From positions 519 to 64,518 of the IMG/VR virus record IMGVR_UViG_3300044904_000088: a stretch of DNA of 64,000 nt. One strand, given 5' to 3'. A program made the position numbers and the translations under genes. Positions within the stretch are counted from its first letter, which is position 1. Each line of letters begins with the position of its first letter. Below the pieces are notes generated by a model. It was not told where the DNA came from, did no database searches, and saw nothing but the letters and a program-made list of their open reading frames with translations. Source of the stretch: a virus (taxonomy: Duplodnaviria; Caudoviricetes). Shown here one piece after another: positions 37,200 to 59,766 of the stretch.

Positions 37200-39476
37200 C
37201 TAGTAGATCTGGGTGACTACGGACCCGGACGGGCCCTTGACGACCTCGTAGACCGAGTCGCCGACGTCGGCGAGATCCTGGTGGTGAGAGACGAGCACGA
37301 CCCGCTCCAGTTCGCCCTGGTGGGCGAGGATGCGGAGCGCCTGGCCGAAGGAGCGGCGGGCGTCGGCATCCAGCCCATCCGGCTCGTCGATGACCAGCGT
37401 GCGTATAGCCGTGCCCGCGCGCCGCGCAACCAGGCGCGAGAGTCCGACGGCGATGGCCAATGACACGCTCATGCGCTCACCGCCGCTGTAGAGCGCTAAC
37501 GCGCGCTCACCGGCGTCGTCTGAGACAATCAGGTCGAGCGCCTCGACGATGCCCTTGCCGTCCTTCTTGGCCCGTTGGGCGCGGATGTCCAGCGTCATGC
37601 CCGGGCGCAGTTGCTCGAGCAGTGCATTCGCGCTGGAAGTGAGCTCCGGCAGGACGGATTCGATAATCCGGGCCGGGATACCGGTGGCGCCGAAGGCGGC
37701 CACGAGACGGCGCAGACGGGCGAGCCACAGGTCGGCGGCCCTGAGCGTGTCCCGCAAGACGTCCCGCTCCTCAGCGATGCGCTCGAGGCGCTCAAGGCCA
37801 GCCACAGCCTGGGCGATGGTGCCTGCGACGCGCCGGCGCTCCTCAGCCCGCGCCCGCAGGTTGCTCTCGACCTGGCCCAGGGCGAACTTGGTCTCTTCGG
37901 CCCGGGAGCGCAGGGCATCGCCCTCGCTGGCTCGGGCTTCTGCCTCGCCCAGCGCGGTGCGGGCGGCCTTGCCAGCGGCCTCGATCTCTGCCAGTTCGGC
38001 CTCGGCCTCGGCGATGGTGGCGCGGGCCGTCTCGGCTGCGGAGCGCATCGACTCGAGGAAGCGAGCCGCCTCGCGAGCCGCCAGAGCGGCACGGTGCCCC
38101 GCGCGGGCGTCCGTGAGATTGATCGGGTCGTATGCCAGGGCGTGCCGATTGATCCTCAGGCGCTCCACCTTCGCAGCCTCCATCGCGAGGTGCAGCGGCT
38201 CCTGGGGCTCGGCTCCGATGTCTGCGATGTCCAGTCGCGCCTGCCGCAGCTTCTCCCCGAGGCCTGCCTGATCGTGCTGCCAGGAGTGGTTGCAGTTCGG
38301 GCAGGTGATCGGCGGCAGCTTCCGCAGGTCATCGACCAGTTCGTCGACGCGGCTCTGGCGGGTGGAGCGCTCGTGGAGCCAAGCTTCGTGCAGGACATCA
38401 AAACGGTGTCGGTCGGCTTCGACCGCCGCCGCGTTGGTGGCGATCGCCCGCTCCAGTTCGCGGTCTTCGGCCTCAGCCCGCTCGAGGCGGCCGACCTCGA
38501 TCTCCAATGCTTGGACGTCGGGGATAGCGGAGAGGTCGGGATCTGCGGCCGCGATTGCCCGCGTCGCCTCCTGGCCTTTGCCGAGGGCATCCATTCTTCG
38601 TGCGTTCACGCGCCGGTAGCGGACCGCCTGCTCCTCGAGGTCGGCCTTGCGTTGAGCGGCCTCGCGGGAAGCTGCCTCGCCGGCCGCGATCCCCACCGCA
38701 AGCCCCTGCAAGGTGGCCGCCAGGTTGGCGCGTGTCGCCTCGTCCTGCTGGTCTTCCGCCTCGAGGCCCGCCGCCAGAGCGACCGCCTGTGCCCGGTCGG
38801 CCTCCATCGCCTCGCGCGCCTCCAACTCCGCCTCGAGTCGCGCCACGGTGGCGCGGTCGGCTGCAGTCTTGCCTTCGACGCCGCGCGTCTCTTCCCGAGC
38901 TCGGACCTCTGCCCGTTCCCACAGATCGAGCCCCAGGACGGTCCCCAGGATCCGCTTGCGGTCGCCAGCGGTGGCCTCGGCGAAGCGGTTAGCCTGGCCC
39001 TGGCCGAGCAGGACGGCGGTGTCGAAGGTCGGGGCGTCCATACGCAGGAGGGCCTCGATCTTGGCCTGCGTGTCGCGGATCGTGTCGCCGGTCAGCGGCC
39101 GCCAGCCGCCCGCGTCCCCTTCTTCGCAAGCTGCGCCGTGCTCGAGAGGATTGGGGCAGACATGAGGCGCACGGATCGCGAGTTCGAGGAAGGAGGAGCC
39201 GCGCGCTTTGGTCGAGCGGCCGCGAGTGATGGCGTACTCGGCGCCGGCGAAGGCGATCTCCGCGCGGACGCTCATCTCGTTCTGCCCGAGCTGCACCAGG
39301 TCGTCGGTGCGGCCGCGGGCGTCATCGAACAAGCTGTACCTGAGGGCATCGATCGCGAGTGCCGATTTACCTGATCCATTCGAACCCACGAACGTGGCGA
39401 GCCTCGCCCCCCCGAAGGCCAAGTCCGTGTGCTCGTGCGAAATGAAATGGCGCAAGCTGAGGCTGTTCAGGCGCAC
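37200..39476 (-). CDS. sbcC: SbcC/Rad50-like SMC ATPase
   Basis: GSNGSGKS Walker A, LGQG Q-loop, coiled coil with CPNC hook, YSGGE signature, LVIDEP Walker B, VSH. Confidence 0.92.
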   Translation of the reverse strand: MRLNSLSLRHFISHEHTDLAFGGARLATFVGSNGSGKSALAIDALRYSLFDDARGRTDDLVQLGQNEMSVRAEIAFAGAEYAITRGRSTKARGSSFLELAIRAPHVCPNPLEHGAACEEGDAGGWRPLTGDTIRDTQAKIEALLRMDAPTFDTAVLLGQGQANRFAEATAGDRKRILGTVLGLDLWERAEVRAREETRGVEGKTAADRATVARLEAELEAREAMEADRAQAVALAAGLEAEDQQDEATRANLAATLQGLAVGIAAGEAASREAAQRKADLEEQAVRYRRVNARRMDALGKGQEATRAIAAADPDLSAIPDVQALEIEVGRLERAEAEDRELERAIATNAAAVEADRHRFDVLHEAWLHERSTRQSRVDELVDDLRKLPPITCPNCNHSWQHDQAGLGEKLRQARLDIADIGAEPQEPLHLAMEAAKVERLRINRHALAYDPINLTDARAGHRAALAAREAARFLESMRSAAETARATIAEAEAELAEIEAAGKAARTALGEAEARASEGDALRSRAEETKFALGQVESNLRARAEERRRVAGTIAQAVAGLERLERIAEERDVLRDTLRAADLWLARLRRLVAAFGATGIPARIIESVLPELTSSANALLEQLRPGMTLDIRAQRAKKDGKGIVEALDLIVSDDAGERALALYSGGERMSVSLAIAVGLSRLVARRAGTAIRTLVIDEPDGLDADARRSFGQALRILAHQGELERVVLVSHHQDLADVGDSVYEVVKGPSGSVVTQIY

Positions 39477-39543
39477 GTCGCCCACCTCTTCCCTTGGGCG
39501 GCCACTCGGTGATCGCACCCCTCGACGGAGTACTTCGTCGGTC

Positions 39544-40704
39544 TCACGACGCCACCTCCGCCAGCAGCCGCCGGCCCTCTTCGACCAGCGCGGGTTCGTC
39601 GTCGTCGCCGCGGAAGAACGTTTCCAGCGCGTCGCCCGGGCTCATGGCCTCAGACAGCCCGCCAGCCAGTTCCGGGATGACCATGGGGCGGCGGCGGATC
39701 TCAGCCACCTCGAAGGCGCCGTGGCTTTCTAGGAACCTGCGGACCTCGCCGGCGTCAATCTCGGGGGGCAGGTTGTGAACACGGACGATGGCGCCCATGA
39801 AACGCATCTGATCGACGGCGGCGTCGATCGCGAAGTCCTCTCCGTCGATCGTCACGAACCGCCGCGTGGGCGTTTCGACAAAGCGCCAGTCGAACCGACC
39901 CGGGCCGACGTCGGCGATGACAAAGCCCTTGATCTCCCGCTCCTCGCCGAAATCCACACGTTCGATCGAACCCGGAATCACGACCGGGCAAGCGAGGCCC
40001 TCGAGCATCTGGTGCCGATGCAGGTGGCCCGCCACGATCCCCTCGAAGCCGATGGCCGCCAAGCGGCCCGCGTCGACCACGGTTCCGCGATCCCCGAGGA
40101 AGGCCTGTTGCGTCTCGCTCATGTGGGCGCCAGCGAGCGTCTGGTGGAGGACCAGGACGACGCCATCCGCGACATTCAATGGCGTCGAGGCGGCCCCGGC
40201 CAATGCCTGGGCATAGAGCCCGCCCGCGATCGCCACGATCTGGTCGGCGAGTATCCCGAAGACCTCGTCGTCGGGAATGTGCTCCATGCCCGGCTGGGCG
40301 CGGAGCCAGTGGCGGTCAAGGTACGGGATGCAGCAGATCGCAGTCCGGCCGATCCACGCCACGCCCGGGCGCGCGAAGGCGCGATCCTCGCCGGAAAGCG
40401 TGCGGCCCAGGACCGTGACGATGGATTCGCCGGCGATCTCTCCGTCGTGGTTGCCGCGAAGGAGCACGAGTTTGTCGCCTAGCGCGCCGGCGATCTTGCC
40501 GACCAGCCAAGGGGAGGGATGGCGTCGCTCGGTGAAATCCCCAGCGACCACGAGGGCGTCGCAGCCCTGGCGGAGGGCTTCGGCTGCGCTCCACCGGAGC
40601 GTCGCGAGATCGTCGACCAGGCGGGCGTTCAGGCCCGTCTGCGGGTCGATCCGCTGGCCGTAGGCATCGATGTGGAGGTCAGCGGTGAAGGCGATGCGGC
40701 TCAT
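39544..40704 (-). CDS. sbcD: SbcD/Mre11-like metallophosphoesterase nuclease
   Basis: ADLH, AGD, GNHD, GHLH and GS.ERVDFGE motifs. Confidence 0.92.
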   Translation of the reverse strand: MSRIAFTADLHIDAYGQRIDPQTGLNARLVDDLATLRWSAAEALRQGCDALVVAGDFTERRHPSPWLVGKIAGALGDKLVLLRGNHDGEIAGESIVTVLGRTLSGEDRAFARPGVAWIGRTAICCIPYLDRHWLRAQPGMEHIPDDEVFGILADQIVAIAGGLYAQALAGAASTPLNVADGVVLVLHQTLAGAHMSETQQAFLGDRGTVVDAGRLAAIGFEGIVAGHLHRHQMLEGLACPVVIPGSIERVDFGEEREIKGFVIADVGPGRFDWRFVETPTRRFVTIDGEDFAIDAAVDQMRFMGAIVRVHNLPPEIDAGEVRRFLESHGAFEVAEIRRRPMVIPELAGGLSEAMSPGDALETFFRGDDDEPALVEEGRRLLAEVAS

Positions 40705-43385: not shown

Positions 43386-44615
43386 TCATCCGAGCGCCTT
43401 CCACGCCGTAAGAAGATCGCCCACGAACGCCTTGACGGCGACCTTGCGGGCGATGCCTTCGATCTGGATGGGACGCAGGGAGCCAGGGGGGGCCTCGATC
43501 TCACGGTCGGGCTCGGCTCCCTGCGTCTCGATTGCGATGGGCCGGAGGCCAGGCGCTTTCCCGATCCCACGGCGCAACTCGGCATCCGGCCCCTCCGGAA
43601 GCGCTGAACCATCCCAGGCGGCGGCCTCAATGGCAGCAACGGCTCCGCGCTCCCGCTGTAGCCGCTCTTTGGCCGCGTCATAGATCTCTCGGTAGACGGG
43701 CACCCGATGGCGCACGATCTGTTCGGCGATGCCCCCGGGCTGCAGGCAGATGGTCCGGCCGATGGGGTTCCAATCGGCTTTCTGGAGCTTGGCCTTGCGC
43801 GGACTCTTGCCGTTGACGACGTGCAGGCCGAGGTAGTGCCAGAGCGAGCGCGTGCCTGTCCCGCGCCGCGGTTCGAGCATCGTGCCAGCGCAAGCGGCCA
43901 CCGCGCCATCGGCGTCGGGCTTGGACCGTCGGGGGCAGGGATCGCCGACGGCGAAGCGCGCCGGCGCGATGTGGCCCTCGGTGCAGGGCTGGCCGGGGAA
44001 ACGGTGCGGATCGCCGATGAGAGCCACCAGGCGGGCCACGTGAACGCCGCCGAGGCCGGGGAACTGCGAGAGCCAGGGCCAGATCGGCTGGCGGCGCAGT
44101 TCGCGCTTCACCTGCTCGGCGAGGCTGGTCCCGACTTTCAGGAGCGACTCAGAGAGCGTCGTCAGGCCGCGCTGCTCGGCGGCGAGACGGGCCTGCTGAA
44201 TGTCGCGCCAGGACCAGGAAAGAGAGGCGAGGAGGGAGCCAGACCGTGCGTCGATCTCAGTTTCGTCTACGGCTTCCTCCTCGTCTTCTGGGAAGGAGGC
44301 AGGCAAGCCACTGGTTGAATCGCCCACATAGTCTTCCTCGGCCTGCCCGCCTCCGTTTGGTGGGGTGGAGATGGGCAGGCCTTGGGCGACGTCGATCTCA
44401 CGGACTACGTCGGCCTGCCCGTCTCCGTTGGTGCCCGGACCATGGTCGGGATCGCTCTCAGTTCGAAGCTCGGTCCGGGCTCCATCTGTTGCGGGAGGAA
44501 AGTGGACGAGCAGGCCAAGAAGTGCATCGATCTCACCAGGGACTTCGGCCTGCTCGTCTACCTCGGCTCGGCCATGACCAGCGTTGTTGTCGATCTCAGG
44601 CAGTCGTTCGGTCAT
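43386..44615 (-). CDS. Tas-like (TasA-type) Nop/IS110-Tnp domain RNA-binding protein, no nuclease domain recognised
   Basis: Short coiled coil then PIWPWLSQFPGLG...ARLVALIGDP.RF, SLWHYLGL, WN, YREIYD..K.R and IARKVAVK.F..DL..W. No N-terminal DEDD RuvC and no HNH; stem-loop arrays embedded in the ORF. Confidence 0.8.
   Translation of the reverse strand: MTERLPEIDNNAGHGRAEVDEQAEVPGEIDALLGLLVHFPPATDGARTELRTESDPDHGPGTNGDGQADVVREIDVAQGLPISTPPNGGGQAEEDYVGDSTSGLPASFPEDEEEAVDETEIDARSGSLLASLSWSWRDIQQARLAAEQRGLTTLSESLLKVGTSLAEQVKRELRRQPIWPWLSQFPGLGGVHVARLVALIGDPHRFPGQPCTEGHIAPARFAVGDPCPRRSKPDADGAVAACAGTMLEPRRGTGTRSLWHYLGLHVVNGKSPRKAKLQKADWNPIGRTICLQPGGIAEQIVRHRVPVYREIYDAAKERLQRERGAVAAIEAAAWDGSALPEGPDAELRRGIGKAPGLRPIAIETQGAEPDREIEAPPGSLRPIQIEGIARKVAVKAFVGDLLTAWKALG
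43472..43653 (-). ncRNA. TIGR-like stem-loop guide array 2 (3 units) inside the 3' part of the tas ORF
   Basis: 33-nt cores at 43609-43641, 43549-43581 and 43483-43515, each closed by its own inverted repeat (e.g. GACGCAGGGAGC..GCTCCCTGCGTC). Confidence 0.8.
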
Positions 44616-44617
44616 GA
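44228..44617 (-). ncRNA. TIGR-like stem-loop guide array 1 (6 units) inside the 5' part of the tas ORF
   Basis: 33-nt cores CGA-N9-TGAGAT-CGA-N9-TGG at 44578-44610, 44515-44547, 44440-44472, 44380-44412, 44308-44340 and 44239-44271, each flanked by a distinct GC-rich stem. Confidence 0.88.
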
Positions 44618-45175
44618 CCAGGCCGCCTTCGCAATCACCTTGAGACTGTCGCGGGCCGGTGCTGCGAGTTCGGCCACGGTCGCCTTGCCGTCGCGCACCA
44701 GGAGCTCGATCGCCCGCTCGGCGACATTCTTCTGCTTGAGGGCGGTGGCCGCACGAGAGCCGCGGTCGGCGGCGATGAACTGCCAGTCGGCGAGAGTGAA
44801 ATGCAGCAGCGAGCGGCGAATGCCGTCGGCGCCGACCAGAGTCAGCGTGAGGGGATCGCCGAGCACTCGCGACGGTGCGACGGCCGCCTGGCGGGCGGAC
44901 CGCTCGCGGTCGGGATCGGCCGCGGCTTGCTCATGCCGAAGTTCGTCGAGAATCGCCTGAATGCCCGACGCCAGGCCGACGCGGATGAGTTCGGTCGTCG
45001 CCTGCTTGTTCGGTTGCATCCGATCGAGGATGGCAACAGCCGCGCGCTCGGCGGTCAGTTGCTCAGCCTCTGCCAGCTTTCCCCCTGCGAGTTCGAGCTC
45101 AGTACGGCCGACGAGGGGCAGAGGCTTGGCGAGGATGGCCTTTGCGGTCATCGGTCGGGCAGCGGCGATGGTCAT
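44612..45175 (-). CDS. Hypothetical protein translationally coupled to the tas-like gene
   Basis: 187 aa helical; its TGA overlaps the tas ATG (ATGA). Confidence 0.7.
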   Translation of the reverse strand: MTIAAARPMTAKAILAKPLPLVGRTELELAGGKLAEAEQLTAERAAVAILDRMQPNKQATTELIRVGLASGIQAILDELRHEQAAADPDRERSARQAAVAPSRVLGDPLTLTLVGADGIRRSLLHFTLADWQFIAADRGSRAATALKQKNVAERAIELLVRDGKATVAELAAPARDSLKVIAKAAWS

Positions 45176-45497
45176 GAGGTGACGGGCCTTTCGATTGAGG
45201 CCGGGGGGCGTAACACCCGGAGACGCCCCCCGGCCGCTGGCTAGCTAGGGCCGGGCGGCAACATCGCCGAAGCGCTCGGCCCTACTGAGCCGACCGGGGG
45301 GGGGCGCGATCGGCTCAGTGCGGACGAGGTTCGGAGTGGCGAGGGATAGTGGGGTGAGCGAGGCGGGATGGCGTGCTGGAGGTAGCCCGGGAAGCGCCCG
45401 GAGGCGACCAGCGGGATGCCGCATGGCGCACCAGCCCGCCCATGGCGGCAGAGCGGCCCTGCGTGGCCCACGCTGGCGGTCCGTGGCTCGTGGGCGG

Positions 45498-46135: not shown

Positions 46136-46339
46136 TCACGCCGTGGCCTCCGGGCTCGGCGTGGCGCCGATCAGGACAGCACGCAGCTTGTTGGCCTCCG
46201 CCTCTGTGGGCGGCACGCCGCGTTCAATAATCGACAGCCGCCCCGGGTTGATGCCTGTGCGCCGGGAGACCTCTCGGAGAGAGAGGCTCAGGGTCTCGCG
46301 CCAGGAGCGCCATGGGGTAGAAGCTTGCGTGGTTGCCAT
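46136..46339 (-). CDS. Cro/XRE-family HTH regulator
   Basis: WRETLSLSLREVSRRTGINPGRLSIIERG..PT. Confidence 0.85.
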   Translation of the reverse strand: MATTQASTPWRSWRETLSLSLREVSRRTGINPGRLSIIERGVPPTEAEANKLRAVLIGATPSPEATA

Positions 46340-46703: not shown

Positions 46704-47731
46704 CAGGAGATCAGCTTGTATCCGCCTTCCATGGCGTTGACGTCCGTCACGGACCAGGCTGGCGTTCCACCTACCGGCTCCGTGTCGTAAATCTGCGTCA
46801 GGAAGGCGTAGCTCGTGCCGAGTGATTGGGTCGTCCCAACGTAGTCCGCTCCGCCGATGCGGAGTAGCGGGGCGATGGTCCGCGCTGCGCCTGCGTCCTT
46901 GCGCCCCACGATGATCGGCTGGACGGCGTAGACCGTGGACCCGGACGCTACGGGGAGGTCCTGCATCTCGTAGCTGTCGATGTTGTTGGCCGTGGCCGAC
47001 ATGTTGAATGTGGAGTCGCCGTCCTCGAACATGTCATCCACACAACCGACGTTCGTACCGCCGTTCGGCGTCCAGTCTCCGTAGAACCCAGCGGCTGCTG
47101 GGTAGACCGGGATAACACGCACGTCGCCAAGGAACGTCGTGTTGGTGCCGGTAGACGTGTCGAGGGCGTAAATGTCATCATACTTCGCCGAATTGTTCGA
47201 CCCGGCTATGCCAAAGCCGTTCCACTGCACGTTGGCGGTTGCCTTCGTGTTGAGCGAGCCGGTCGAGGCGATCTCTGTCGCGCCGTTCAGGTGAAGCTCG
47301 ACCACGCCGGTCGAGCCGTTGATTGTGAACTTGAGTTCGACGTAATACCACGTGTTGGAAGTCAGAACAGTCGTTCCGGTTGCCAGCAGAGTGTCTTCTC
47401 GCGAAACAGTCAGGACGCCGGAGTCGTTTGTCCTGACACTAATCTGTTCGCTTGTCCCGTCCAGAATAAAGAGCACCCCAGACTGGCGGGCGGCCGCAGG
47501 CAAGTTTACAGCAAAGCCGACGCACCCAGAGACATAGTTGGCGCCGAATGACTTGCTGATCCACCCGGGAACACCGTTGAAGTTATAGGACAATAGTCCC
47601 TGCCCATCCCCCCTCGAAGAGGAAGAACTGATCGACCCGTTTTCTCCACTGTTATAGACTTGCGTCCATCGCCTTAGAAGATCGGTCATAGACTGGTAGT
47701 AATCGAAACCGTCCATGAAGATGCAGGCCAT
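46703..47731 (-). CDS. ConA/LamG-like virion protein (receptor-binding candidate), unit 2
   Basis: MACIFMDGFD..NTWYYVELK...G.VELHLNG..YDDIY; lower GC in its 5' half. Confidence 0.65.
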   Translation of the reverse strand: MACIFMDGFDYYQSMTDLLRRWTQVYNSGENGSISSSSSRGDGQGLLSYNFNGVPGWISKSFGANYVSGCVGFAVNLPAAARQSGVLFILDGTSEQISVRTNDSGVLTVSREDTLLATGTTVLTSNTWYYVELKFTINGSTGVVELHLNGATEIASTGSLNTKATANVQWNGFGIAGSNNSAKYDDIYALDTSTGTNTTFLGDVRVIPVYPAAAGFYGDWTPNGGTNVGCVDDMFEDGDSTFNMSATANNIDSYEMQDLPVASGSTVYAVQPIIVGRKDAGAARTIAPLLRIGGADYVGTTQSLGTSYAFLTQIYDTEPVGGTPAWSVTDVNAMEGGYKLIS

Positions 47732-48123
47732 CAGTAATCGCCTCCACTCGCCACCATATCGGTCGTCTTTCCGGCGGTCATCGCGGCGACACACCCGGCC
47801 TGTAGCGTCCAGCCGGAGGGGACCACGAGGTACCCTAGTTTCGGCGAGAGCGTGGACATGGCCTCGACTCTCGGCACGGTCGTATATCCCGATCCCGCCG
47901 GAACGGCCACCACGCCGATGTAGTGATTGGTCGAGCCGTCGTTCAGGTAGAACGCCAGGTTCACCGCCGCCGTGTCGTTGGTGCTGCACATGATCGAGTC
48001 GAAGCGCGTGCCGTTTGATCCGATGGAGCCGAGCGACTTAGCGACGGTCGTGTCGGTGATCGTGAACTGGACTGCATCGACGCAGATCGCAGCCTCGAAG
48101 ATCGGGGAAGTTCCTGCTGACAT
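47731..48123 (-). CDS. Small beta-rich virion protein, unit 2
   Basis: 130 aa ending GGDY; coupled to its neighbours. Confidence 0.6.
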   Translation of the reverse strand: MSAGTSPIFEAAICVDAVQFTITDTTVAKSLGSIGSNGTRFDSIMCSTNDTAAVNLAFYLNDGSTNHYIGVVAVPAGSGYTTVPRVEAMSTLSPKLGYLVVPSGWTLQAGCVAAMTAGKTTDMVASGGDY

Positions 48124-48143
48124 GGTCGTCTCCTAGTCGTCTC

Positions 48144-49268
48144 CTAACGGAAAAGGTTATAGGCGGTGATGAGCCCTTCGGCACTCTGGACAGCCGGGAC
48201 GCTCCCGCCGCCACCCGCTGGGTGAACATGGTCTTCGTGGCTCGCGGTCGCCGCCGTTCCGACCGAGCCGGAACCGGACTCTACAAGCGGCGTATCGGAA
48301 CCCAGGCTCACGCCCGAGCCGAAGGTTGTCTCTGCGCCCGTATCGTCCTTGACGGCGAGGATCTTGCCGGTCTTGGCATAGACGCGCAGCTTGCCCGAGC
48401 CGGGCGTCCCCGGAGCAGCGGCCACCGTGCCGTCGAGGTAGGTGAACACGCCTTCGTCGGCGAGCCCGCTGCCGGCCGCCGGCATACCGTGCTTGTGGTC
48501 GCGCCGAGCGGCCACGGTGGCCGAGCCTGCGGCGGCCGCGTCGCTGTAGGCTTGCGTCACGGGCACGGTCGCATCGAAGACCAGGATCGTGTCGTCATCC
48601 CGGAGGAAGGTGCCCGAAGACCCGGCGCTATTCGCGGTCCCTAGCGTCAGGGCAGGCGTCCCACCCGATGCACCGCCGCCAGACACAGCCGCCCACGTTC
48701 CCGGCGAGCCTGCCGACGTGCAGATGTAGATGCTGCCGTCCTGCGTGACCACGAAGTCACCCACGGCGAAGGTGCCAGTGGCAGGAGCGCCGGAGGCCGT
48801 GCCGCCGACGTAGCGCGTGGCCGCCACGGCTCCGGTGAGGCCCATCGGCTGGCCGTTGGCGGCATCGCTCCCTGTCGCACCGGCTGCCCCGGTTGCCCCG
48901 ACGCCCAACTGCTGGCCCTGGTCGCTGTAGACGTGCCAGCCGTTGTCATCCCAGAGAGCCGAGTAGTCGGCTGGCAGTGTGATCGTCCCGGTGATCGCGT
49001 TGGCCGCTGCTGTGCCACCCCGGAACAGTTGGAACGTCCGCGAGACGCTATCGGTGTTGACCACCGTGATCGTCTTGACGACGGTGACGGTGGTAGCCGG
49101 AACGGTGTAGATCGTGGCGGCAGAGGACGCGAGTTGGCCCTGGTACAGCACCTTGCCCGCGTCGGCCCCGGTAGCGGTGTTGATCTCGTCCCCGGAGATC
49201 GTGCAGGTCAGCTTGCTTGCGGCAGAGGCCACGCCTGCGAGGGTGTCGGCGGCGGCGAGGAATAGCAT
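48144..49268 (-). CDS. Tail fibre protein, copy 2
   Basis: Same N-terminal ~195 aa as 486-1988; ARRDHKHGMP and ASHEDHVHP fibre motifs. Confidence 0.75.
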   Translation of the reverse strand: MLFLAAADTLAGVASAASKLTCTISGDEINTATGADAGKVLYQGQLASSAATIYTVPATTVTVVKTITVVNTDSVSRTFQLFRGGTAAANAITGTITLPADYSALWDDNGWHVYSDQGQQLGVGATGAAGATGSDAANGQPMGLTGAVAATRYVGGTASGAPATGTFAVGDFVVTQDGSIYICTSAGSPGTWAAVSGGGASGGTPALTLGTANSAGSSGTFLRDDDTILVFDATVPVTQAYSDAAAAGSATVAARRDHKHGMPAAGSGLADEGVFTYLDGTVAAAPGTPGSGKLRVYAKTGKILAVKDDTGAETTFGSGVSLGSDTPLVESGSGSVGTAATASHEDHVHPAGGGGSVPAVQSAEGLITAYNLFR

Positions 49269-49269
49269 G

Positions 49270-49770
49270 TCAGCCTCCCAGGGCGAAGATGCGAAGGATG
49301 TTGACGCCGGCGACGTGCCATGTCGGCTCCGTGGCCGCGCCGTTGGAGGTTAGGACGGTGCCTGCCGCTCCCGCTCCGATCCGATCCGGTACTCCGACCG
49401 GCGGCGTACCAGCGATGACAGCCGAGGCGGTGACCAGATCTCCCACGGTGGTCATGGGGTTCGCCATGCCGCCCCCGTCGCCGCTCGGCCAGAGCCAGCC
49501 CGTGTCGTAGTCAGCGCCGGAGAACTTCGTCAGCACCTCGCCGAGCGAGCCGCCCGTGGGCACTCCCACGCCGGGCGCTCCAGGCGCACCGGGCGATCCG
49601 GGGGCTCCAGGCGCACCAGGCGCTCCGGGAGGACCACCGCTACCGCCGCCGCCGCCGCTGACACCCCCGGGGCCTCCCGCACCGCCGCCGCCGCCGCCTG
49701 CAGCCGTACCGGGGACACCGGCGAGGGATGCCTTGCGGACTTCCTTGGAGACGTGCAGCCGGACGCTCAT
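49270..49770 (-). CDS. Gly-rich/collagen-like minor tail protein, copy 2
   Basis: Paralogue of 1990-2316 with a ~57-aa insertion. Confidence 0.7.
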   Translation of the reverse strand: MSVRLHVSKEVRKASLAGVPGTAAGGGGGGAGGPGGVSGGGGGSGGPPGAPGAPGAPGSPGAPGAPGVGVPTGGSLGEVLTKFSGADYDTGWLWPSGDGGGMANPMTTVGDLVTASAVIAGTPPVGVPDRIGAGAAGTVLTSNGAATEPTWHVAGVNILRIFALGG

Positions 49771-49772
49771 TG

Positions 49773-51545
49773 TCAGTCCACCTTCGTTCCGCCGACCGCG
49801 CCGACGTAGGTGCCAGCGCCGCCGGGGACCACGGTCATCTCGGTCCGATAGGTGTCCACGAGCCAGAGGGAGTCCTCGCCCATGACCGGGTCCACAACCT
49901 CCACCGTGTCACCCTTCTGGAGCGCCGGGTGGCCCACGATGCCGAAGTCGAAGATGCGCCGGAAGCTGTCTTGCTTCGCCAGTTGAGCCAGGGCCGTGAC
50001 CCCCGCCTCAGCCGCAGTGGCGATAGCGGTCTCGTTGACGATGACCCGCCGGATCGCGTTGTTCAGGGAGGTCTCCATCGGGCCGGTCACACCTTGCGGC
50101 TCCGGCAGAGAGACGAGCCCGACCCCAGCGATGGCAACGGCTACCACGTCCGCCCCGGTCGAGTCCTTGCCGACAACCTTGACGCGAGTAGCCAGCTCAT
50201 ACTCGTCGCTCGACCGTTCCAGCGAGAGCATGTCGACTCCGGCGTGGAACGTGTAGGCCGCGGAGCCGAGGGCGATGGGATCGAAGTGGTAGCAGCCCTG
50301 CTCGTCTGCGAAGCTCTGGAAGCCGACCATCGTGGCAAGCTGGCTGAACGCCGCCGCGAAGCTGGTTCCGTCCGTCACCTCGAAGTCGGCCACGAGGTAG
50401 TCCGTCGTCGTGACGTGGTGGGATGGGAACTGAAGGTGCGTCAGCAGGTCGAGCACGATGTCGGAGACCTGCATGTTGAGGTAGACGTAGTTCGCCGTGG
50501 TGCGCACAGCCCCGGTCGCTCCTACCGCCTGGGGATAGGAAACGATGGCACTCTGAACCAGGGCGTTTTTCATCCAGTCCCGCGCCGTCAGGGTGATCTC
50601 GCGGACCTTCGAGTCCCGTGTCTCGTCCGGCTTGTCGAGGAAGCCGTAGAACGTCTGGATCTTGTTGGCGGCGTCCCCGTACCACTGGTGAACCCAGATC
50701 TTACGGTCGCAGACGCAGAGCGGAAGCCAGGCCGACCAGTCGGCCTCGTCCATCGGTGCCAGCTCGCACACAACCTCGAGACCATCCGAGTCGGTCTGGA
50801 GGCTCTTGTCGATGGAGATGCGTTTCACGGGGATCGGCGCGGTCCCTACCTTTCCGCCCCAGAGCAGCATGGCGTAACAGGTCGTGAACATGCTGCCGGT
50901 CCCGGTCTGCCCCGCCGTAATGTGGATCGACCAGTAGCGATGCGGCCCGGCAGCCACCGATCCTTGAAGTGGTCCCTCGGCCTCGGCCCCGGGGTCGATG
51001 GTGGAGTCCGTCGTCCAGGTCGTCCCATCGTCGGAATGTTCGACCAACCAGTGCGCCCAGCATCCAGGGTTGTTCTCCTGAATGATCCCCTTGACCATCC
51101 AGTAGGTCACGACGGTCCCGGCTCCGAGGTCCCAGGAGAAGCGGCCTTCCCACGACGCGCCGCCGTCTAGCGTCACGGAGTCGTTCATGCCAAAGCGGCA
51201 GTTGCCCGGCCAACAGGCGTCCCCGTTGGCATTCGTGAGCGTGTCAGAGAAGTAACCAGGAACCCAGGGACCGCTGAACGAGGATGACGCCGTGTAGGGA
51301 CGGAGCGGAGAGTTGCCGTTCGGCAGCCCGTCCGTCCTGCTCGGCTGGTGGGTAGACGGATAGTACTGCGCGCCATGGAAGCAGCCGCCGAGGAGGTCCT
51401 GCGAGGTCGGGTTGTTTCCCTCGGGCACGTAGTCCGAGGTCACGTCGGCAGGGTTCTCCAGCTCCACCAGCGCCCGGAAGCCGTGAGCGCCGGCCTGGAA
51501 CTTGGAGACCAGGATCTCTTCCAGGTCGCTGGAGATGGTTTGCAC
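49773..51545 (-). CDS. Minor tail (hub/Tal-like) protein, copy 2
   Basis: Paralogue of 2318-4090. Confidence 0.7.
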   Translation of the reverse strand: MQTISSDLEEILVSKFQAGAHGFRALVELENPADVTSDYVPEGNNPTSQDLLGGCFHGAQYYPSTHQPSRTDGLPNGNSPLRPYTASSSFSGPWVPGYFSDTLTNANGDACWPGNCRFGMNDSVTLDGGASWEGRFSWDLGAGTVVTYWMVKGIIQENNPGCWAHWLVEHSDDGTTWTTDSTIDPGAEAEGPLQGSVAAGPHRYWSIHITAGQTGTGSMFTTCYAMLLWGGKVGTAPIPVKRISIDKSLQTDSDGLEVVCELAPMDEADWSAWLPLCVCDRKIWVHQWYGDAANKIQTFYGFLDKPDETRDSKVREITLTARDWMKNALVQSAIVSYPQAVGATGAVRTTANYVYLNMQVSDIVLDLLTHLQFPSHHVTTTDYLVADFEVTDGTSFAAAFSQLATMVGFQSFADEQGCYHFDPIALGSAAYTFHAGVDMLSLERSSDEYELATRVKVVGKDSTGADVVAVAIAGVGLVSLPEPQGVTGPMETSLNNAIRRVIVNETAIATAAEAGVTALAQLAKQDSFRRIFDFGIVGHPALQKGDTVEVVDPVMGEDSLWLVDTYRTEMTVVPGGAGTYVGAVGGTKVD

Positions 51546-51546
51546 G

Positions 51547-51915
51547 TCAGTCCTCGACCAGCGTCGCGTCCACCGTCCAGAGACCAGGCGCGATCTGGTT
51601 CGGCTTGAGTTCCTCCACGATCACGGTGAGCGTCTCCTCCGGCGCGACCCAGGTGACCGGCGTGACAGTCTCGTGGTAGCCGCTCATCGTGGCCCAATCG
51701 GCGTCAGTGACCCATGGGAAGGTCACCGTCGCCTGCCGGCGCGGCAGGGAGCCGCTCTGAATGACCTCGTTCTCGGTAGAGGGCGTGCCCGCGATGGTGC
51801 CGATAATCCCGACGAGGGTGATGAATGGCGGGTGCTCAAAGCCGCTGTACTTGCCGTCCTCGACCCAGATCGGGCTGATCGAGCCGAGGGCGAAGCCGGA
51901 GGTCGATGCTGTCAT
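51547..51915 (-). CDS. Distal tail protein-like, copy 2
   Basis: Paralogue of 4092-4460. Confidence 0.65.
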   Translation of the reverse strand: MTASTSGFALGSISPIWVEDGKYSGFEHPPFITLVGIIGTIAGTPSTENEVIQSGSLPRRQATVTFPWVTDADWATMSGYHETVTPVTWVAPEETLTVIVEELKPNQIAPGLWTVDATLVED

Positions 51916-54563
51916 GGCCGTATCCCGCTGTACGAGCTGAACCGGGAGTTCTGTTTCTGCATCTCGGCCGCGATCTCGTCGTGGACCATGACGGCAAACC
52001 TCTTGGCCGCCGCCCGGTCCGGGTTACCCTCGAGCGTGAGTTGGATCGTGCCGATCGTCACGCCGCCGAAGCCGCCCGTGTTCTGACTCGCTGGGATGAC
52101 CGCCTCGCCCTTGTGGATGAAGGCGAGCTGATCGCTGTCCACGTACACCGTGCCGGAGGCGAAGGCTTTGACTGCGGCCCGGGGCTTCGGCCCGGGGGTC
52201 ACGGGCACCTTGGCGCTGCTCGTCGAACTGACAGTCCCGCCCGGCGTGGACCAGCTTGCGACGGACCCCGGGGGCGGCGTCACCAGGCTCGGGCTGTTGA
52301 GCAGGGCCGTCGCCCACTTCCCGTTAGCGATGCCAGCCAGGAAGCCCGCGGAATATGCCGTGCCAGCGGCCGTCCCGCCCGTCGATACCGTGCCGTTCAG
52401 CGTGGCCAGGGCTTGCTCCGTATCGCTCTGGACCGCCTGCCACATCGTCACCGTGTCGGGGTCCATCGACGCCAGCCCGTCCTTGAGCGCCTGGCTCTGG
52501 AGCAGGGCCTGCATCTTGGTGGCCTTCTGCGCGTCGGTGCCGTACTGCGTGTCCTCCTCGAGCAGCGTGAGGTACGCCGCCTTCTGGGTGATGAGTTGGG
52601 TCTGCAGCGCGTCTTTCTGGGTAGCGGTGAGCTTGGCATAGGTCGCTTTGTTGTTGACCTGCTTCTGCGTCGCGTCCAGAGCCGCCTTGGCATCCTGCTC
52701 GCGATAGCCGATGGTCTGGGCCGCGACCACGTTGTTCATGGCCTCGGTCCACGCCCCGGACAGGGCAGTCCGGGCGGTCTTGATCAGGCCCACCTGCGCG
52801 TCGGTGCCTTGGGCCAGCGCATCGGTGGCACCAGCAGCGGCGTCGGTAGCCGCCGGGGCGATGCCGGAGTAGGCCTCCGTCGCGGCAGCGGTTATGGCGG
52901 GCTGCTGTCCGGCGAGGGCGGTGGCGGAGCCGGAGAAGGTGGCTCCGTAGTCCGGCACGGTGGGGGCAGGGGTACCGCCGAGGATGTTCTTGAAGGGGCC
53001 GAGGTCGATGGTCGGCGTGTTCTTCGGTCCGAGCGGCCAGGGGAGATTGTTCGCCCAATCGCCAATCCCGGCGAGCGGGCCGCCGCCGGATCCGAAGAGC
53101 ATCGAGTTGAGGTTCAGGTTCTTGTTGAGCCAGTCCTGGATCGTGGGTGCCGCTGCGGCCAGGCCGACCATGAGAGCGAGGGGCAGGGCCACGGCCAGCG
53201 CTCCGCCAGCCAGGGTGCCGACGCCTCCTGCCGCCACGGCTACCTCTGCCCCGCCGGCTGTGACCGCTCCGGCCTCTGCCGTGGCCATCGCCCCGCCCGC
53301 CTCGAGGCCGGACGCGCCTGCGGCGGCATCGATCTCTGGAGATTGCGCCACGACGGCCGCCGCGACAGCGGGGCCACCGGCCGCGACCGCCCCGGCCTCG
53401 CCCGTCACCGTGGCACCGCCGGCGGCGGCTCCGCCGCCAAGCCAGGTGGGAAGCGTCAGGCCGAGCTGCTCTGCGATCTTCGGGATGATTGCCCCGGCAA
53501 GGCCTCCGAACCCGGCCGCGATCTTCGGGGTCATCTGGGCGCCGATTATCAGGAGCGGACCGAAGCTCTGGCTGACGGACGCTAGGGCGCCGCCGATGTT
53601 GTGCATGAGCAGCGTGAACTGGTTGCCCCAATCGCTCCTGATCGCATCCGCCGCCTTCTGCGTCGCATCCTGCGTGTCGACAGTCGAGGTTTGGAACTGG
53701 TCGAGGCTGGTGATCCCGGGCTTGAGAGCGTCGGCCAGTTGCGCGCCGGCGCGGGTGCCGAAGTCCTTTGCGGCTACCTTGGCACGCTCGAGCGGGTCCT
53801 GGATCGAGCTGATCTGGGTGATGAGGTCGTTGAGTGTCTGGCCGGGCTTGAGTTGCTTGATGGCCGTGTTCAACGCCGTGGGGGCCTTGCTCGCATCGAT
53901 GCCTGCGGCGGCGAACATGTTGAGCAGGTCGACGCCATCGGAGAACTGCATGCCCATCGCGGTCAGCGCGGGTGCCATCTTCTGAAGGGACGTCTGGTCG
54001 TCGGCGACGCTCGTCCCGTACTTCTGGTGGCTCGCGACGAGCTGGTCCATGATCGTCCCCTCGTCGCTGGCCGAGAGGTTCCACGCGTCCGTGATCATCT
54101 TCAAGGCGGTGACCGCCTGAGCGTCCTGGCCGGTCGCAGTCTCGTAGGTGAGCATCTTCTGAGTGAGGTCGTCGGCCGCCTGACCGGACAGGTTGAAGCC
54201 GCTGATGACCTCTGCCAGCGAGGCCTCAACCGAGTCCATCGACTGGAGGTTGCCCCGATACATCGAATCGATGGCACTGCTCTGCTGGGCGAGCGCCTGG
54301 CCGGTCAGGCCGGTGTCGGCCGCAAGCTTCTGAGTGGCAGCGTCGAGTGCCGCGCCCTGCTGGATGGCGATCCCGAACAGTGCGCCGGCACCCGCGCCGA
54401 TGGCGGAGCCCATCGCGCTCCGCAGCTTGGAGCCGAGCTGTTCGCCCATCGTCTGGCCGGCCGACTTGCCAGCCGAGTTCGCGGCGCTTACGGCGTCAGT
54501 CTGGAACTGGCCCGTGTCGAGTTGGAGCCGGACGGAGGCAAAGATGTCTGCGATCGCGCTCAT
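51912..54563 (-). CDS. Tape measure protein, copy 2
   Basis: 883 aa paralogue of 4457-7105. Confidence 0.9.
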   Translation of the reverse strand: MSAIADIFASVRLQLDTGQFQTDAVSAANSAGKSAGQTMGEQLGSKLRSAMGSAIGAGAGALFGIAIQQGAALDAATQKLAADTGLTGQALAQQSSAIDSMYRGNLQSMDSVEASLAEVISGFNLSGQAADDLTQKMLTYETATGQDAQAVTALKMITDAWNLSASDEGTIMDQLVASHQKYGTSVADDQTSLQKMAPALTAMGMQFSDGVDLLNMFAAAGIDASKAPTALNTAIKQLKPGQTLNDLITQISSIQDPLERAKVAAKDFGTRAGAQLADALKPGITSLDQFQTSTVDTQDATQKAADAIRSDWGNQFTLLMHNIGGALASVSQSFGPLLIIGAQMTPKIAAGFGGLAGAIIPKIAEQLGLTLPTWLGGGAAAGGATVTGEAGAVAAGGPAVAAAVVAQSPEIDAAAGASGLEAGGAMATAEAGAVTAGGAEVAVAAGGVGTLAGGALAVALPLALMVGLAAAAPTIQDWLNKNLNLNSMLFGSGGGPLAGIGDWANNLPWPLGPKNTPTIDLGPFKNILGGTPAPTVPDYGATFSGSATALAGQQPAITAAATEAYSGIAPAATDAAAGATDALAQGTDAQVGLIKTARTALSGAWTEAMNNVVAAQTIGYREQDAKAALDATQKQVNNKATYAKLTATQKDALQTQLITQKAAYLTLLEEDTQYGTDAQKATKMQALLQSQALKDGLASMDPDTVTMWQAVQSDTEQALATLNGTVSTGGTAAGTAYSAGFLAGIANGKWATALLNSPSLVTPPPGSVASWSTPGGTVSSTSSAKVPVTPGPKPRAAVKAFASGTVYVDSDQLAFIHKGEAVIPASQNTGGFGGVTIGTIQLTLEGNPDRAAAKRFAVMVHDEIAAEMQKQNSRFSSYSGIRP

Positions 54564-55308
54564 GCGTCGTAGCCCTTCACGCTGCCCGGCACGAGCCGAG
54601 CGAGGCGTTGCATCTGGGCGCGTCCCCGGGCCTTGCTAGGCGGCGGGGCAGGCGGCAGATACCAGGGCGGTTCGAGGTCATGGCGAGCCACGGTCACCTC
54701 GTACACAGGCACGGGTGCCCGCACGTTCGCGTCGTATGTCGCCGCGTAGGTCTCTGCCATTCGGTCTCGCTGTTCTTTGGCTACGCGCGTTTGCGCCGCC
54801 TGGTGGTAGAGGAGGACCTGGCGGTAGGTGAAGGCTTGCTCGAGGTCGTCAGGGCGGATATGCCAGACGGCAAGGGCCCACTCGAGGAGTTCTGCGAGGC
54901 TGACTCCACGGCGCGGCGGATGATCGTCAGAACGAGGGCCGTCTGGCTGGCCGCTTTTGGGTAGGCCACTTCTAGGAGCTTGTCGTAGATCACGTCGATG
55001 TCGCGCTCGGTGGCGTCTTCGAGGTCGCCGAGGGCATGGCCGGGGTGGCAGCGCGGCACGACGCCCGGCTTGTAGTCCGGGCAGCTTCCGGCGTCGTAGG
55101 CCAGCACGAGCTCGCGCTCGGTGTCGGACATGGCACGCACGCCTTCGGGGGTATCGGTGCGGGTATTGGCCAGGGCGATGATCCCGGCCTCGAGCCGCTC
55201 CTGCCACTCCCGGTTGGCCCGCCACTTGAGCTCCGGCACGAGGCGCTCTTCGCCGTTGATGGTGAACGGGAGGAGACCGCGAACGACCTCCTCCTCATCC
55301 GCGCTCAT
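54560..55308 (-). CDS. Tail assembly chaperones G (54781-55308) and GT (-1 frameshift), copy 2
   Basis: C CCA AAA at 54955-54961 is conserved. Confidence 0.8.
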
Positions 55309-55832
55309 ACCGTCAAGCGCTCAATGCTGAACGGAGCCAGGGTCGGGACGGCGGGATCGCCATAGGCCGTGAATGTCACAGGCGTGCCGGCGGTCGAGGA
55401 GACGCCGAACTCGCAGGTGATGTTGCCCGTCTGGAGCGCGTCGGTCAGGGTGACCACCACGGGCTGGCCGTCCGGCCCAGTGGCCTTCATCACGACGTCG
55501 TGATGATCGGCGGTCAGGACAACGCCGATGCTCTGGGTGAGCTTGGTCATGCCAGGCGTGCCGGCCACGCTGGCGATGGACGTGTTCTGAAGGGCCGCCT
55601 GGAGCTTCGAGAGCGCCAGCTCGTTGAGCTTGGTGGTCAGCTCGGCCTTGATCTTGGTGATCCTGGTCAAGCCCTTGAGCGGGCCGACGGCCCCCTGAAA
55701 CTCGGGCTCGTAACGGGTCACGGTGATGACGAGCTTGGCCGGGTCCTCGGACGCGCCCAGCTCGATGCTGTTGTACTGGAGACTGTCTGGCGGTCCGAAG
55801 AAGACGTCCTCGGCCGTGATCGTCATTGGCAT
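55305..55832 (-). CDS. Major tail protein, copy 2
   Basis: Paralogue of 7799-8326. Confidence 0.8.
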   Translation of the reverse strand: MPMTITAEDVFFGPPDSLQYNSIELGASEDPAKLVITVTRYEPEFQGAVGPLKGLTRITKIKAELTTKLNELALSKLQAALQNTSIASVAGTPGMTKLTQSIGVVLTADHHDVVMKATGPDGQPVVVTLTDALQTGNITCEFGVSSTAGTPVTFTAYGDPAVPTLAPFSIERLTV

Positions 55833-55906
55833 TTGCGACTCCCCGCGAGAGGGGCTTCCCTCCCCGCCCCCACTCGCATTCAGGGCGGATCGGTTGCGCT
55901 AGCGCG

Positions 55907-56326
55907 CTAGGTTACGGTTTCGGTCCTCGTGACCGGGTACTCGATGGTGCTGTGCCAGAGGGGCTGTCGGGTGTCTGGGTCGGTCTCGGGACTGGACGCC
56001 GACACATACGAGTGCCACGTACCCAGGCCCGACGCCGCCTGACGCCCCCCCCTGTCGTGGAAGACGGCTTCGACCGCCATGCCCATCGCCTCGGCGTCTG
56101 CCGGGGTCTTCCCATAAGAGCGCACGCCGAGAACCACCATCCGAATCGGGAGGCGGCGACGTGGCATGCCATCGAGCCAGTTGACGACGATGAACCTTTG
56201 ATATTCGCTCGGCCCCTTGGCGTCGCCCGGAGCGGGCTCGAAGGCGCGGACCGGAGCGCGGAGCGCGATGATCCCCGCGTCCGCATTGAGTTCCGCGATC
56301 GCGCTGGTCAGGGGTGAAGAGATCAT
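55907..56326 (-). CDS. Tail terminator-like protein, copy 2
   Basis: Paralogue of 8402-8821. Confidence 0.65.
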   Translation of the reverse strand: MISSPLTSAIAELNADAGIIALRAPVRAFEPAPGDAKGPSEYQRFIVVNWLDGMPRRRLPIRMVVLGVRSYGKTPADAEAMGMAVEAVFHDRGGRQAASGLGTWHSYVSASSPETDPDTRQPLWHSTIEYPVTRTETVT

Positions 56327-56898
56327 TTGAGCGCCTGGTTCCATGCGGCCTTGCGAGCTTTGGCGGCGGCGACGTTGCCTGCCTTGGCGGAGCCGCCGGA
56401 GGCCGTCACCATCGCCCGGGCTGCCCCGCCTGCGATGCGAGCAGCCATCGCGGGGAGCACGTACTTACCGGTGCCCGGCACACCCGCATTGACAGCCGGG
56501 AGGAAGAATGGCCGGGGGGCCTCCTTGACCGTGCCATGCTCCGCGAAGTGGGCCAGCGGCGAGCTGAACCACATTACGAGCACCATCTGGTCGGCTGGCA
56601 CCTTGAGGCCGCGGGGCTTCTGCGACGAGGCGGCCAGACTCGAGTCGCCCGCGACCAGCTTGCCCATCGCCCACACGGCGCAGTGCCCGGTGTCCGCCAT
56701 CATCGGGACGCCGCGCTTAGCTGCCTCGGCGGCATCTTTGGGCGCACGGCTGGAAGCGTCGGCGATGATCTGCGTGCCGAGGGCGAACAGGCCATCCGCA
56801 ATGCCGAGCCCGGCCGCGTCCAGGGCGGCCTGGTTCATGACGATCGCGGCGGCGCGGTTGGCGAGCACCTTGGCGGAAGGAGCTGCGGAGACTGGCAT
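56323..56898 (-). CDS. HK97 gp10-like protein, copy 2
   Basis: Paralogue of 8818-9393. Confidence 0.75.
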   Translation of the reverse strand: MPVSAAPSAKVLANRAAAIVMNQAALDAAGLGIADGLFALGTQIIADASSRAPKDAAEAAKRGVPMMADTGHCAVWAMGKLVAGDSSLAASSQKPRGLKVPADQMVLVMWFSSPLAHFAEHGTVKEAPRPFFLPAVNAGVPGTGKYVLPAMAARIAGGAARAMVTASGGSAKAGNVAAAKARKAAWNQALK

Positions 56899-56905
56899 CG
56901 TCAGG

Positions 56906-57304
56906 TCACTTCACTAGTTTGGCGTCGAGCTGGAGATGGTGGCCACGGCCGGCGGGATCCACGACGCCGCTGACTTCCCAATACGGGCCGGCCGTGTCGG
57001 TGTTGAGGTGGATGCGATCCGCCGTGATCACGTCGACGTCGGGCAGCAAGAAGATCCGCGCCCAGATGTCCTGAGCGCCGCCCTGGCTGAACAGCGGGAC
57101 CTCGGTTGCCTTGAGCGCTTGGATGGAGCCCATCTGCCACGTCGGGTTGGCGGGGTCGATCGGCTCCGGATCATCCAGCGCGACCCAGTCCCGGATCGGG
57201 TGCCCGTAGTCGGTCAGTTGCTCGACCGGCGGCGTGCCCGCGATCATGCGGTCGTAGGCCCGCTCGATGACAAGCAACTGCCGAAGGCCCTGGGCGATGC
57301 TCAT
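56906..57304 (-). CDS. Head closure protein, copy 2
   Basis: Paralogue of 9394-9792. Confidence 0.75.
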   Translation of the reverse strand: MSIAQGLRQLLVIERAYDRMIAGTPPVEQLTDYGHPIRDWVALDDPEPIDPANPTWQMGSIQALKATEVPLFSQGGAQDIWARIFLLPDVDVITADRIHLNTDTAGPYWEVSGVVDPAGRGHHLQLDAKLVK

Positions 57305-59329: not shown

Positions 59330-59766
59330 CGCGGCTTCCTCAGCACGGCGCGGCCCCACGGTCCCCACTCGGCCTCGCCCGTCTCCCAGGAGACCATCTC
59401 CCATAGGCGGATGCCGTACTCTGCGTTCGCGACCATGCGGCCCGTGAAGTACCAGAAGGACTGCTCGACCCAGAAGCTGACGTGGGTCGGGTCCGCGACC
59501 GCCGCCCAGCAGGGGAACAGCGGCACGATGATCTCGAACGTCCCGCCGGGCTCCAGGACCCGCCAGACCTCGTTGAATGCGTCGATCCGCTCCTGGCCGG
59601 CCGGCACGTGCTCCATGAGGTGCGAGCAGCGGGCCGCCTCAACGGTGTCGTGCCCACACGGGATGCCCTCCTGGATACGCCGTTTCATGACGCCCTGGCC
59701 GTGAATAGGGTCGAGATTCGTGAAGCCTTCGTTGAGCGCCAACCCCCCGCCGATGTCGATCTTCAT
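59320..59766 (-). CDS. SAM-dependent methyltransferase, copy 2
   Basis: Paralogue of 11826-12272. Confidence 0.85.
   Translation of the reverse strand: MKIDIGGGLALNEGFTNLDPIHGQGVMKRRIQEGIPCGHDTVEAARCSHLMEHVPAGQERIDAFNEVWRVLEPGGTFEIIVPLFPCWAAVADPTHVSFWVEQSFWYFTGRMVANAEYGIRLWEMVSWETGEAEWGPWGRAVLRKPRCA

Follow-up and report, generated by a model that had tools for sequence, protein, structure and literature searches.

Candidate TIGR-TasA system of a tailed phage with nine dual-spacer hairpins inside the tasA reading frame

The virus record IMGVR_UViG_3300044904_000088 of IMG/VR (Duplodnaviria; Caudoviricetes), which stems from a peat sample, has 64,518 bases and is complete by the CheckV estimate. 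The stretch analysed here, referred to as the window, covers 64,000 nucleotides (nt) of it (record positions 519 to 64,518; all coordinates below are those of the window). An open reading frame (ORF) of 409 amino acids (aa), located on the minus strand at 43386..44615, encodes a protein (P0001) related to the Tas proteins, and nine hairpins, each with two 9-nt spacers, lie in the same segment. We are highly confident that this locus is a TIGR-TasA system and, with only slightly more reserve, regard it as a phage stem-loop TIGR-TasA system in which the guide array lies wholly inside the tasA reading frame. The system is probably a non-cleaving RNA-guided DNA binder or repressor directed at the DNA of the host or of competing phages. 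The sources compared here already report stem-loop arrays with TasA, repression by TasA and intragenic guides placed in frame (PMC12045711; 10.64898/2026.09.09.750476), so the locus belongs to a known kind. Four of its features may be undescribed so far: the fixed codon phase of the units, a CGA box C, a clade-specific, invariant Cys-His-Cys-Cys insertion in the protein, and loops that have diverged between kept stems.

The nine hairpin units were located on the minus strand between positions 44625 and 43470. The arms of each unit are 15–18 nt long and are unique in sequence yet complementary, and the loop of every unit is exactly 30 nt, with the consensus GA-N9-TG-AGAT-CGA-N9-TG. Together with the closing C before the loop and the G after it, the loop forms two symmetric halves of the type C-G-A / N9 / U-G. 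The nine units were used to build a covariance model, named R1, with a stem of 12 base pairs (bp). At E ≤ 10, R1 matched the window 13 times: the units themselves, all on the minus strand, had E ≤ 1.2e-7, and E was at least 0.94 for the other four matches. In the 12-bp stems, 94.4% of the cells were paired, as compared with 63.9 ± 3.4% in shuffles (0 of 500 as high) and with 27.8 to 45.5% in a slid control in which the 3′ partner was shifted by 1–3 columns, and 10 of the 12 pairs had changed on both sides. The 5′ array folded as six hairpins with z = −5.48 (0 of 100 shuffles as good). A search of Rfam returned a chance microRNA match alone (E 0.22). As in stem-loop TIGR arrays, 9+9-nt spacers stand between CGA and TG, the flanks are palindromic and variable, and the units lie on the tas strand. 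An earlier note, made from the letters of the window alone, had described nine minus-strand dual-spacer units with differing but complementary stems. R1 finds exactly those nine in the 64 kb, the 10 compensatory pairs bear out the stems, and all 18 spacers are 9 nt long with the letters listed at the time.

Three units are consensus throughout: U1 (44564..44625; aa −3 to 18; R1 E 8.7e-9), which has CGA/TG + CGA/TG boxes and holds the tasA start codon in its 5′ arm, and, likewise with canonical boxes, U2 (44499..44564; aa 18–39; E 4e-11) and U9 (43470..43529; aa 363–382; E 3.2e-11), the 3′ arm of which encodes the conserved residues GSLRP. U3 (44425..44488; aa 43–64; E 2.6e-10) deviates in the linker only, which reads AGAG at its centre, and in U4 (44367..44426; aa 64–83; E 4.5e-11) the second box D is AG. 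The remaining four units are U5 (44293..44356; aa 87–108; E 2.8e-9), with a central TGTGGG variant containing an in-frame GTG; U6 (44223..44288; aa 110–131; E 1.5e-10), with CGT as its first box and a 3′ arm that encodes GSLLASL, the start of the conserved core; U7 (43596..43655; aa 321–340; E 1.2e-7), with the degenerate boxes CGT and CGC; and U8 (43536..43595; aa 341–360; E 3.5e-9), with the variants TGGGAT and CGG. All lie on the minus strand. The box substitutions that the earlier note assigned to units 5–8 were thus found again, but its list was incomplete with respect to U3 and U4, and the end that it gave for the locus, 44617, needs correction, as the 5′ arm of U1 reaches 44625, into the upstream gene. 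A CUU processing motif was also considered; CTT follows the 3′ arm in just four of the nine units, and nothing is claimed from it.

The 409-aa ORF contains all nine units, and each loop starts at codon position 1 (loop starts 44609, 44546, 44471, 44411, 44339, 44270, 43640, 43580 and 43514), so that the spacings between units are multiples of three. This placement was absent from the earlier description. U1–U6 span aa 1–131, the acidic N-terminus, and U7–U9 span aa 321–382, an insertion before the last helix. In the AlphaFold model both unit-bearing segments are predicted to be disordered, with means of the predicted local distance difference test (pLDDT) over 10-residue blocks of 37–67 and 51–55, respectively. 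The N-terminal 125 residues contain 31 D+E and 6 K+R, an acidity that arises because the GA and GAG-ATC-GA boxes are read in this phase. The T of box D falls on the third codon position, where it is T at 17 of 18 sites; in the core, T makes up 9.1% of 232 third positions. This shows a constraint at the RNA level acting on synonymous sites. After the ATG, in-frame start codons next occur at aa 97, 104 and 169, and neither of the other two frames is open, indicating that at least U6–U9 are translated if the conserved core is made. The loop of U5 (44325–44345, minus strand) carries the in-frame GTG of aa 97, with GAGGA 7 nt upstream; this GTG could be an internal start that bypasses most of the acidic tail.

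The protein was compared with known families and folds. A search of PDB chains with a family profile of 120 homologues listed nine matches: TIGR-TasR (9mty, E 2.4e-23), TasH (E 3.8e-5) and seven that were noise (E ≥ 0.86). The AlphaFold model, built from a 120-sequence alignment, had a mean pLDDT of 75.2 and a predicted template-modelling (TM) score of 0.66. Foldseek with this model matched 9mty_A (E 5.2e-7, target TM 0.52) and TasH chains (E 1.5e-3 to 2.5e-2); the next match was IS621 (8wt6, E 0.59), and Nop5 was not among the listed matches. A fold search of BFVD returned nothing at E ≤ 0.001. The model is confident in aa 128–325 and 378–409 (10-residue block means of 89–98), and residues 1–125 are predicted to be disordered (block means of 37–51, and 67 for residues 121–130). 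The folded core (aa 128–325; 43641..44234, minus) comprises coiled-coil helices at 128–174 and a Nop-like C-terminal domain and aligns with residues 111–268 of 9mty, that is, the alignment starts past the RuvC domain; a conserved C-terminal helix spans aa 378–409 (43389..43484, minus). No nuclease family (RuvC, HNH) was found in Pfam or NCBIfam scans of the tasA product, which, together with the disordered N-terminus, places it in the TasA type. The fold comparison with Tas, IS110 and Nop5 that the earlier note had proposed accordingly ended with TasR and TasH as the best matches, in agreement with its description of an IS110/Nop-type protein of TasA type without RuvC or HNH. All family-invariant residues are present in the window protein, and the ORF is intact.

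When two copies were modelled, a symmetric dimer was predicted through the coiled coil (aa 131–165), with a score of 0.63 as against 0.00 for the best control; Tas dimers have already been solved, and the score may owe more to resemblance to these than to independent support. In the calibration, 20 of 30 proteins with structures solved as pairs attained the 0.63 mark, as did 1 of 23 solved as single chains. The dimer runs had at least 92% of their contacts in common, with a partner pLDDT of at least 77.

Within the core, a clade-specific insertion (aa 208–252; 43860..43994, minus) sits between a helix-hairpin-helix-like GDPxRF motif and an SLWHY helix. C211, H215 and C227 do not vary among the 120 sequences, and C242 has a conservation of at least 90%. 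The chain of 9mty runs from 199 to 202 at the insertion site, with no counterpart, and the segment is absent from seven more distant Tas proteins. The Cys/His insertion pointed out in the earlier note is real and is invariant in the clade; its pattern of residues, along with small strands that the model shows there, leads us to infer a putative metal-binding module. In the TIGR-Tas literature compared, the main text contains neither "zinc" nor, outside reference lists, "cysteine", and a literature search for TIGR-Tas and zinc gave, among the matches listed, what by title and abstract appear to be general reviews or unrelated work.

Homologues of the protein numbered 154 in a word-indexed search, and an exhaustive profile search of cluster representatives gave 2210 at E 1e-3, 777 at E 1e-10 and 136 at E 1e-30. 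No related loci were found in a single-protein search of viral contigs or in an alignment search of 185,579 species genomes. Thirty-one related loci were collected, of which 29 were analysed after the duplicates L008 and L016 had been left out. R1 gave 147 matches at E ≤ 1 in these loci, 144 of them on the tas strand. Full 54-nt matches numbered 89, and 71 of these lay in the tas open frame, 70 in the same codon phase as in the window and one in the other open phase; the other 18 lay outside the tas frame, in mixed phases. Across 88 distinct units, CGA, TG, CGA and TG were conserved at 74–99% and the spacer columns held 0.01–0.17 bits, where the conservation of the boxes is partly circular because R1 itself selected the matches. 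The CGA/TG box variant noticed earlier is accordingly also present in the units of relatives. Two sites appear to be ancestral unit positions: the first immediately precedes the core helix, and the second immediately precedes the last helix. The 3′ arms at both encode conserved residues (G-LLASL and G-LRP, respectively).

Comparison with close relatives separated the stems from the loops. Against P0002, the closest relative, 187 of 217 core residues were identical, 60 of 75 stem-coded residues and 17 of 80 loop-coded residues; against P0003 the corresponding values were 186 of 214, 38 of 56 and 12 of 62. These loop differences are known from proteins alone, and block replacement and fast divergence are indistinguishable on this basis. 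The spacers of the window did not recur beyond chance in the 89 full-length units of the relatives. Contigs of four DNA runs were compared with the window, and one that is near-identical to it may be its source. Contigs of relatives from two DNA runs matched the tasA core but skipped or replaced the array segments 43485–43711 and 44235–44549: one had 153 other letters in place of 225 nt, and another skipped 100 nt and 167 nt. Contig joints at 80% likeness in metagenomes are weak evidence.

The units resemble those of characterized systems. The stem-loop arrays reported to be associated with TasA have two 8–12-nt spacers between motifs of box C and box D, together with variable palindromic flanks, and small-RNA sequencing indicated that they are expressed and processed (PMC12045711). 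The TIGRFinder survey lists 2,559 stem-loop arrays and describes units within tas, at its 5′ end, at its 3′ end or internally, which leave the frame intact and typically fall in disordered regions; it also reports that intragenic units of BlTasA (Bifidobacterium longum) were recovered as processed RNAs in the ribonucleoprotein (RNP) and that TasA represses transcription reversibly (10.64898/2026.09.09.750476). The window contig may already be listed in the TIGRFinder/TIGRSafari catalogue. As in BlTasA, the units of the window are in the tas coding sequence, do not break the frame and coincide with disordered segments. BlTasA is described as having upstream units too and intragenic ones in a "wedge loop"; those of the window occupy the N-terminal tail and the insertion that precedes the last helix. 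The fixed codon phase of the window units is not stated for BlTasA or the TIGRFinder arrays in the text compared.

PlTasA, from a Peromyscus leucopus gut contig, is also a nuclease-less protein with a coiled coil and a Nop domain, and has tandem hairpins with variable palindromic stems, a disordered N-terminus, sub-arrays that flank the core and a box C adenine right before the spacer. In its reported cryo-electron microscopy structure, each of the two strands forms a 9-bp heteroduplex, and the box C adenine beside the spacer is conserved (10.64898/2026.08.11.744272), which fits the CGA of the window units. Compared by description only, the PlTasA array consists of three sub-arrays that are "intergenic" and about 450 nt apart, whereas all units of the window are in the ORF, and the window clade carries the Cys-His-Cys-Cys insertion. 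Box C is reported as CUU for PateTasR and is CGA in the window units. TaTasR (PDB 9mty) and SpTasH (PDB 9w04, 21kl), the best profile and fold matches, share the coiled coil and the C-terminal domain with the window protein and dimerize through the coiled coil, as is predicted for it; unlike it, they have RuvC or HNH domains and 36-nt dual-repeat guides, and they lack the aa 208–252 insertion. Archaeal and eukaryotic box C/D small RNPs (Nop5/Nop56/58) combine a C/D-boxed dual-guide RNA with a Nop-type domain on a coiled-coil dimer, much as is predicted for the window system; the likeness is described in PMC12045711. In contrast to these, no kink-turn/L7Ae or fibrillarin partner is evident at the window locus, and the expected target is DNA rather than ribosomal RNA.

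By analogy with the characterized TasA systems, the locus may work as follows. The tasA transcript, as the sequence and the models show, carries nine hairpins with two 9-nt spacers each, every spacer lying between CGA (box C-like) and UG (box D-like), and an RNase of the host would cut the hairpins from it. Each hairpin would then be bound by a TasA dimer, in which the Nop-like domains would hold the boxes and the coiled coil would dimerize. This RNP would unwind about 18 bp of DNA, where spacer A would pair with one strand and spacer B would pair next to it, on the opposite strand; having no nuclease, the RNP would stay bound and block transcription of its target in the host or a competing phage. 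Since the guides and the message are on one RNA, excision of the guides and the translation of TasA would compete, giving a built-in coupling of dosage.

Several observations weigh against this reading. Expression, processing and DNA binding of the window system are predictions by analogy; a look-up of sequencing runs for this DNA listed none from RNA. A promoter scan near tasA gave no promoter-like sites, so that the transcription unit is only assumed. The fold of the 3′ sub-array was marginal versus shuffles (z = −1.91, 7 of 200 shuffles as good), and four of the nine units, U5–U8, may be weak or dead because of their box substitutions. The NCBIfam equivalog NF052498 (TIGR_Tas_endo) matched the protein at E 6.5e-24, in line with the TasA assignment, but its 85.1 bits are below the cut-off of 100; this model is named for endonuclease forms, and the window protein is not one.

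Finally, no target was detected. A target was taken to consist of spacer A with the reverse-complemented spacer B behind it on one strand, a layout derived from reported 3′ overhangs, and both orders were searched, as the earlier note had suggested; nothing beyond chance was found in the window or in the IMG/VR scans described below. Within the window, no self-target with up to two mismatches was present in either order with gaps of 0–2. With three mismatches there were 15 matches, a number at the level of chance (30 shuffled controls averaged 10.0), and the array itself accounts for at least two of them. A match of 15/18 to U9 spacer B plus reverse-complement A (a poly-C spacer), with the mismatches at the spacer edges, lies at 45288–45305 (minus) and belongs to these chance-level matches. 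Scans of IMG/VR for exact 18-mers, covering two of the nine units in the expected order, gave chance-level matches only, and no target is claimed: U1 spacer A plus reverse-complement B occurred at six loci, representing three unrelated sequences of 47–64% GC, the expected-order 18-mer of U2 occurred at one locus, and the opposite-order control of U1 occurred at nine loci in four unrelated groups. This agrees with the remark in the TIGRFinder preprint that short spacers yield many false positives (10.64898/2026.09.09.750476).

The lack of a target, the position of all nine units within the message, the U1 arm that covers the start codon and the degenerate boxes of several units would also suit hairpins that act mainly in cis, as TasA-binding or RNase sites through which tasA autoregulates the stability or translation of its mRNA, with spacers that guide nothing in trans. 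We consider this unlikely, because such a role does not need nine units with two variable segments of exactly 9 nt, nor does it account for spacer columns of near-zero information beside conserved boxes or for the divergence of loop-coded residues between close relatives (17/80 identical) with the stems kept (60/75). In addition, relatives carry units outside the ORF (18 of the 89 full-length matches), and the intragenic units of BlTasA are reported as processed RNAs recovered in the RNP.

Equally improbable, in our estimate, is a decaying remnant, in which the protein or most of the guides are dead and the array persists because it is locked into the frame. The substitutions in U5–U8 and the smaller ones in U3 and U4 would be in line with decay, as would the missing targets and a possible fossil unit at 43900..43957 (minus). 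The latter is a hairpin with a 30-nt loop within the Cys/His insertion, in phase 0, which starts with GA and is without the TG/CGA/TG boxes. It was missed by R1, and conservation is lacking in L011–L022, the nearest relatives for which DNA is at hand; more distant relatives have intact units at its site. It may be a decayed tenth unit. The rest of the locus does not look decayed: the ORF is unbroken, the core has block pLDDT means of 89–98 and every family-invariant residue, U1, U2 and U9 are fully consensus with U3 off in the linker only, and the pairing of the stems has been kept by compensatory change.

Two related readings are highly improbable: that an acidic disordered tail (AE..EID..G) is repeated at the protein level and the hairpins are incidental, or that the locus is a remnant of an IS110-type transposase with folds resembling a bridge RNA. 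In their favour, the units translate into similar acidic peptides (31 D+E and 6 K+R in residues 1–125) and the protein matches PF02371 (the single Pfam match, 17.6 bits versus a cut-off of 21.3), the NCBIfam IS110 model NF033542 (16.3 bits versus 140) and a PHROGs family that bears the label "transposase" (E 2.2e-21). Against them, repetition in the protein would not call for unique arms that stay complementary, and the synonymous third-position T is fixed at 17 of 18 box D sites. Apart from the distantly related RNA-binding domain indicated by PF02371 and 8wt6, IS110/IS621 differs from the locus in that the window protein lacks a DEDD/RuvC domain, its residues 1–125 being disordered in the model, scores far below the cut-offs and is accompanied by nine hairpins instead of a single two-loop bridge RNA.

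A stem-loop TIGR-TasA system with its array inside tasA is therefore the reading that we retain; as an example it is compact and has every guide within the gene, and the virus record that carries it is estimated to be complete. TIGR-Tas is a young field, in which, in the reports compared, natural targets, spacer acquisition and the maturation of stem-loop guides are still open questions. The general picture of TIGR-Tas systems is unchanged by the locus; it is useful for telling RNA-level from protein-level constraint and for comparing close relatives with kept stems and differing loops, and it has a conserved putative metal site that goes unmentioned in the TIGR-Tas literature compared. A more far-reaching proposal, which we put forward only tentatively and consider rather doubtful, is that the tasA message of this clade is the only guide precursor, that loop cassettes are replaced between kept stems and that the Cys-His-Cys-Cys module handles the stems or processing. 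If this were true, the fixed-phase guides would couple guide production to the synthesis of TasA on one RNA, the replacement of loops would point to an unknown template-directed acquisition of paired spacers, and the Cys-His-Cys-Cys module would be a metal-binding addition that acts on the long stems or their processing.

The window also carries genes for terminase, portal, protease, capsid, tape-measure and tail proteins. Neither the locus nor the protein had a match in megablast and tblastn searches against 50,697 phage records, and the nearest terminase was less than 37% identical. The tasA gene lies in a minus-strand block, with a helix-turn-helix gene upstream and SbcCD-like genes downstream. 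Its ATG overlaps the stop codon of the gene immediately upstream (ATGA), which encodes a 187-aa protein of no assigned function (44612..45175, minus). Homologues of this protein are found directly upstream of tas in 6 of the 29 related loci, and it matched no family in Pfam, PHROG or NCBIfam. The helix-turn-helix protein (67 aa; 46136–46339, minus) is in the same strand block and matched PF01381 below threshold (E 9.5e-5; 22.8 bits versus a cut-off of 23); its homologues lie upstream of tas in loci L018 and L004. The SbcC-like (772 aa) and SbcD-like (386 aa) genes (37200–40704, minus) have the same orientation as tasA, and a functional tie to TasA is not indicated. A terminator scan gave two terminator-like sites, both on the opposite strand. 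A block of about 15 kb with tail, tape-measure, capsid and protease genes is present twice, at 1–16600 and 47400–64000 of the window, with 81–91% identity between the copies. The "linear 64.5 kb" record may thus represent two related tandem prophages; alternatively, the genome may measure about 47.4 kb, with an assembly that wraps round it across strain variants.

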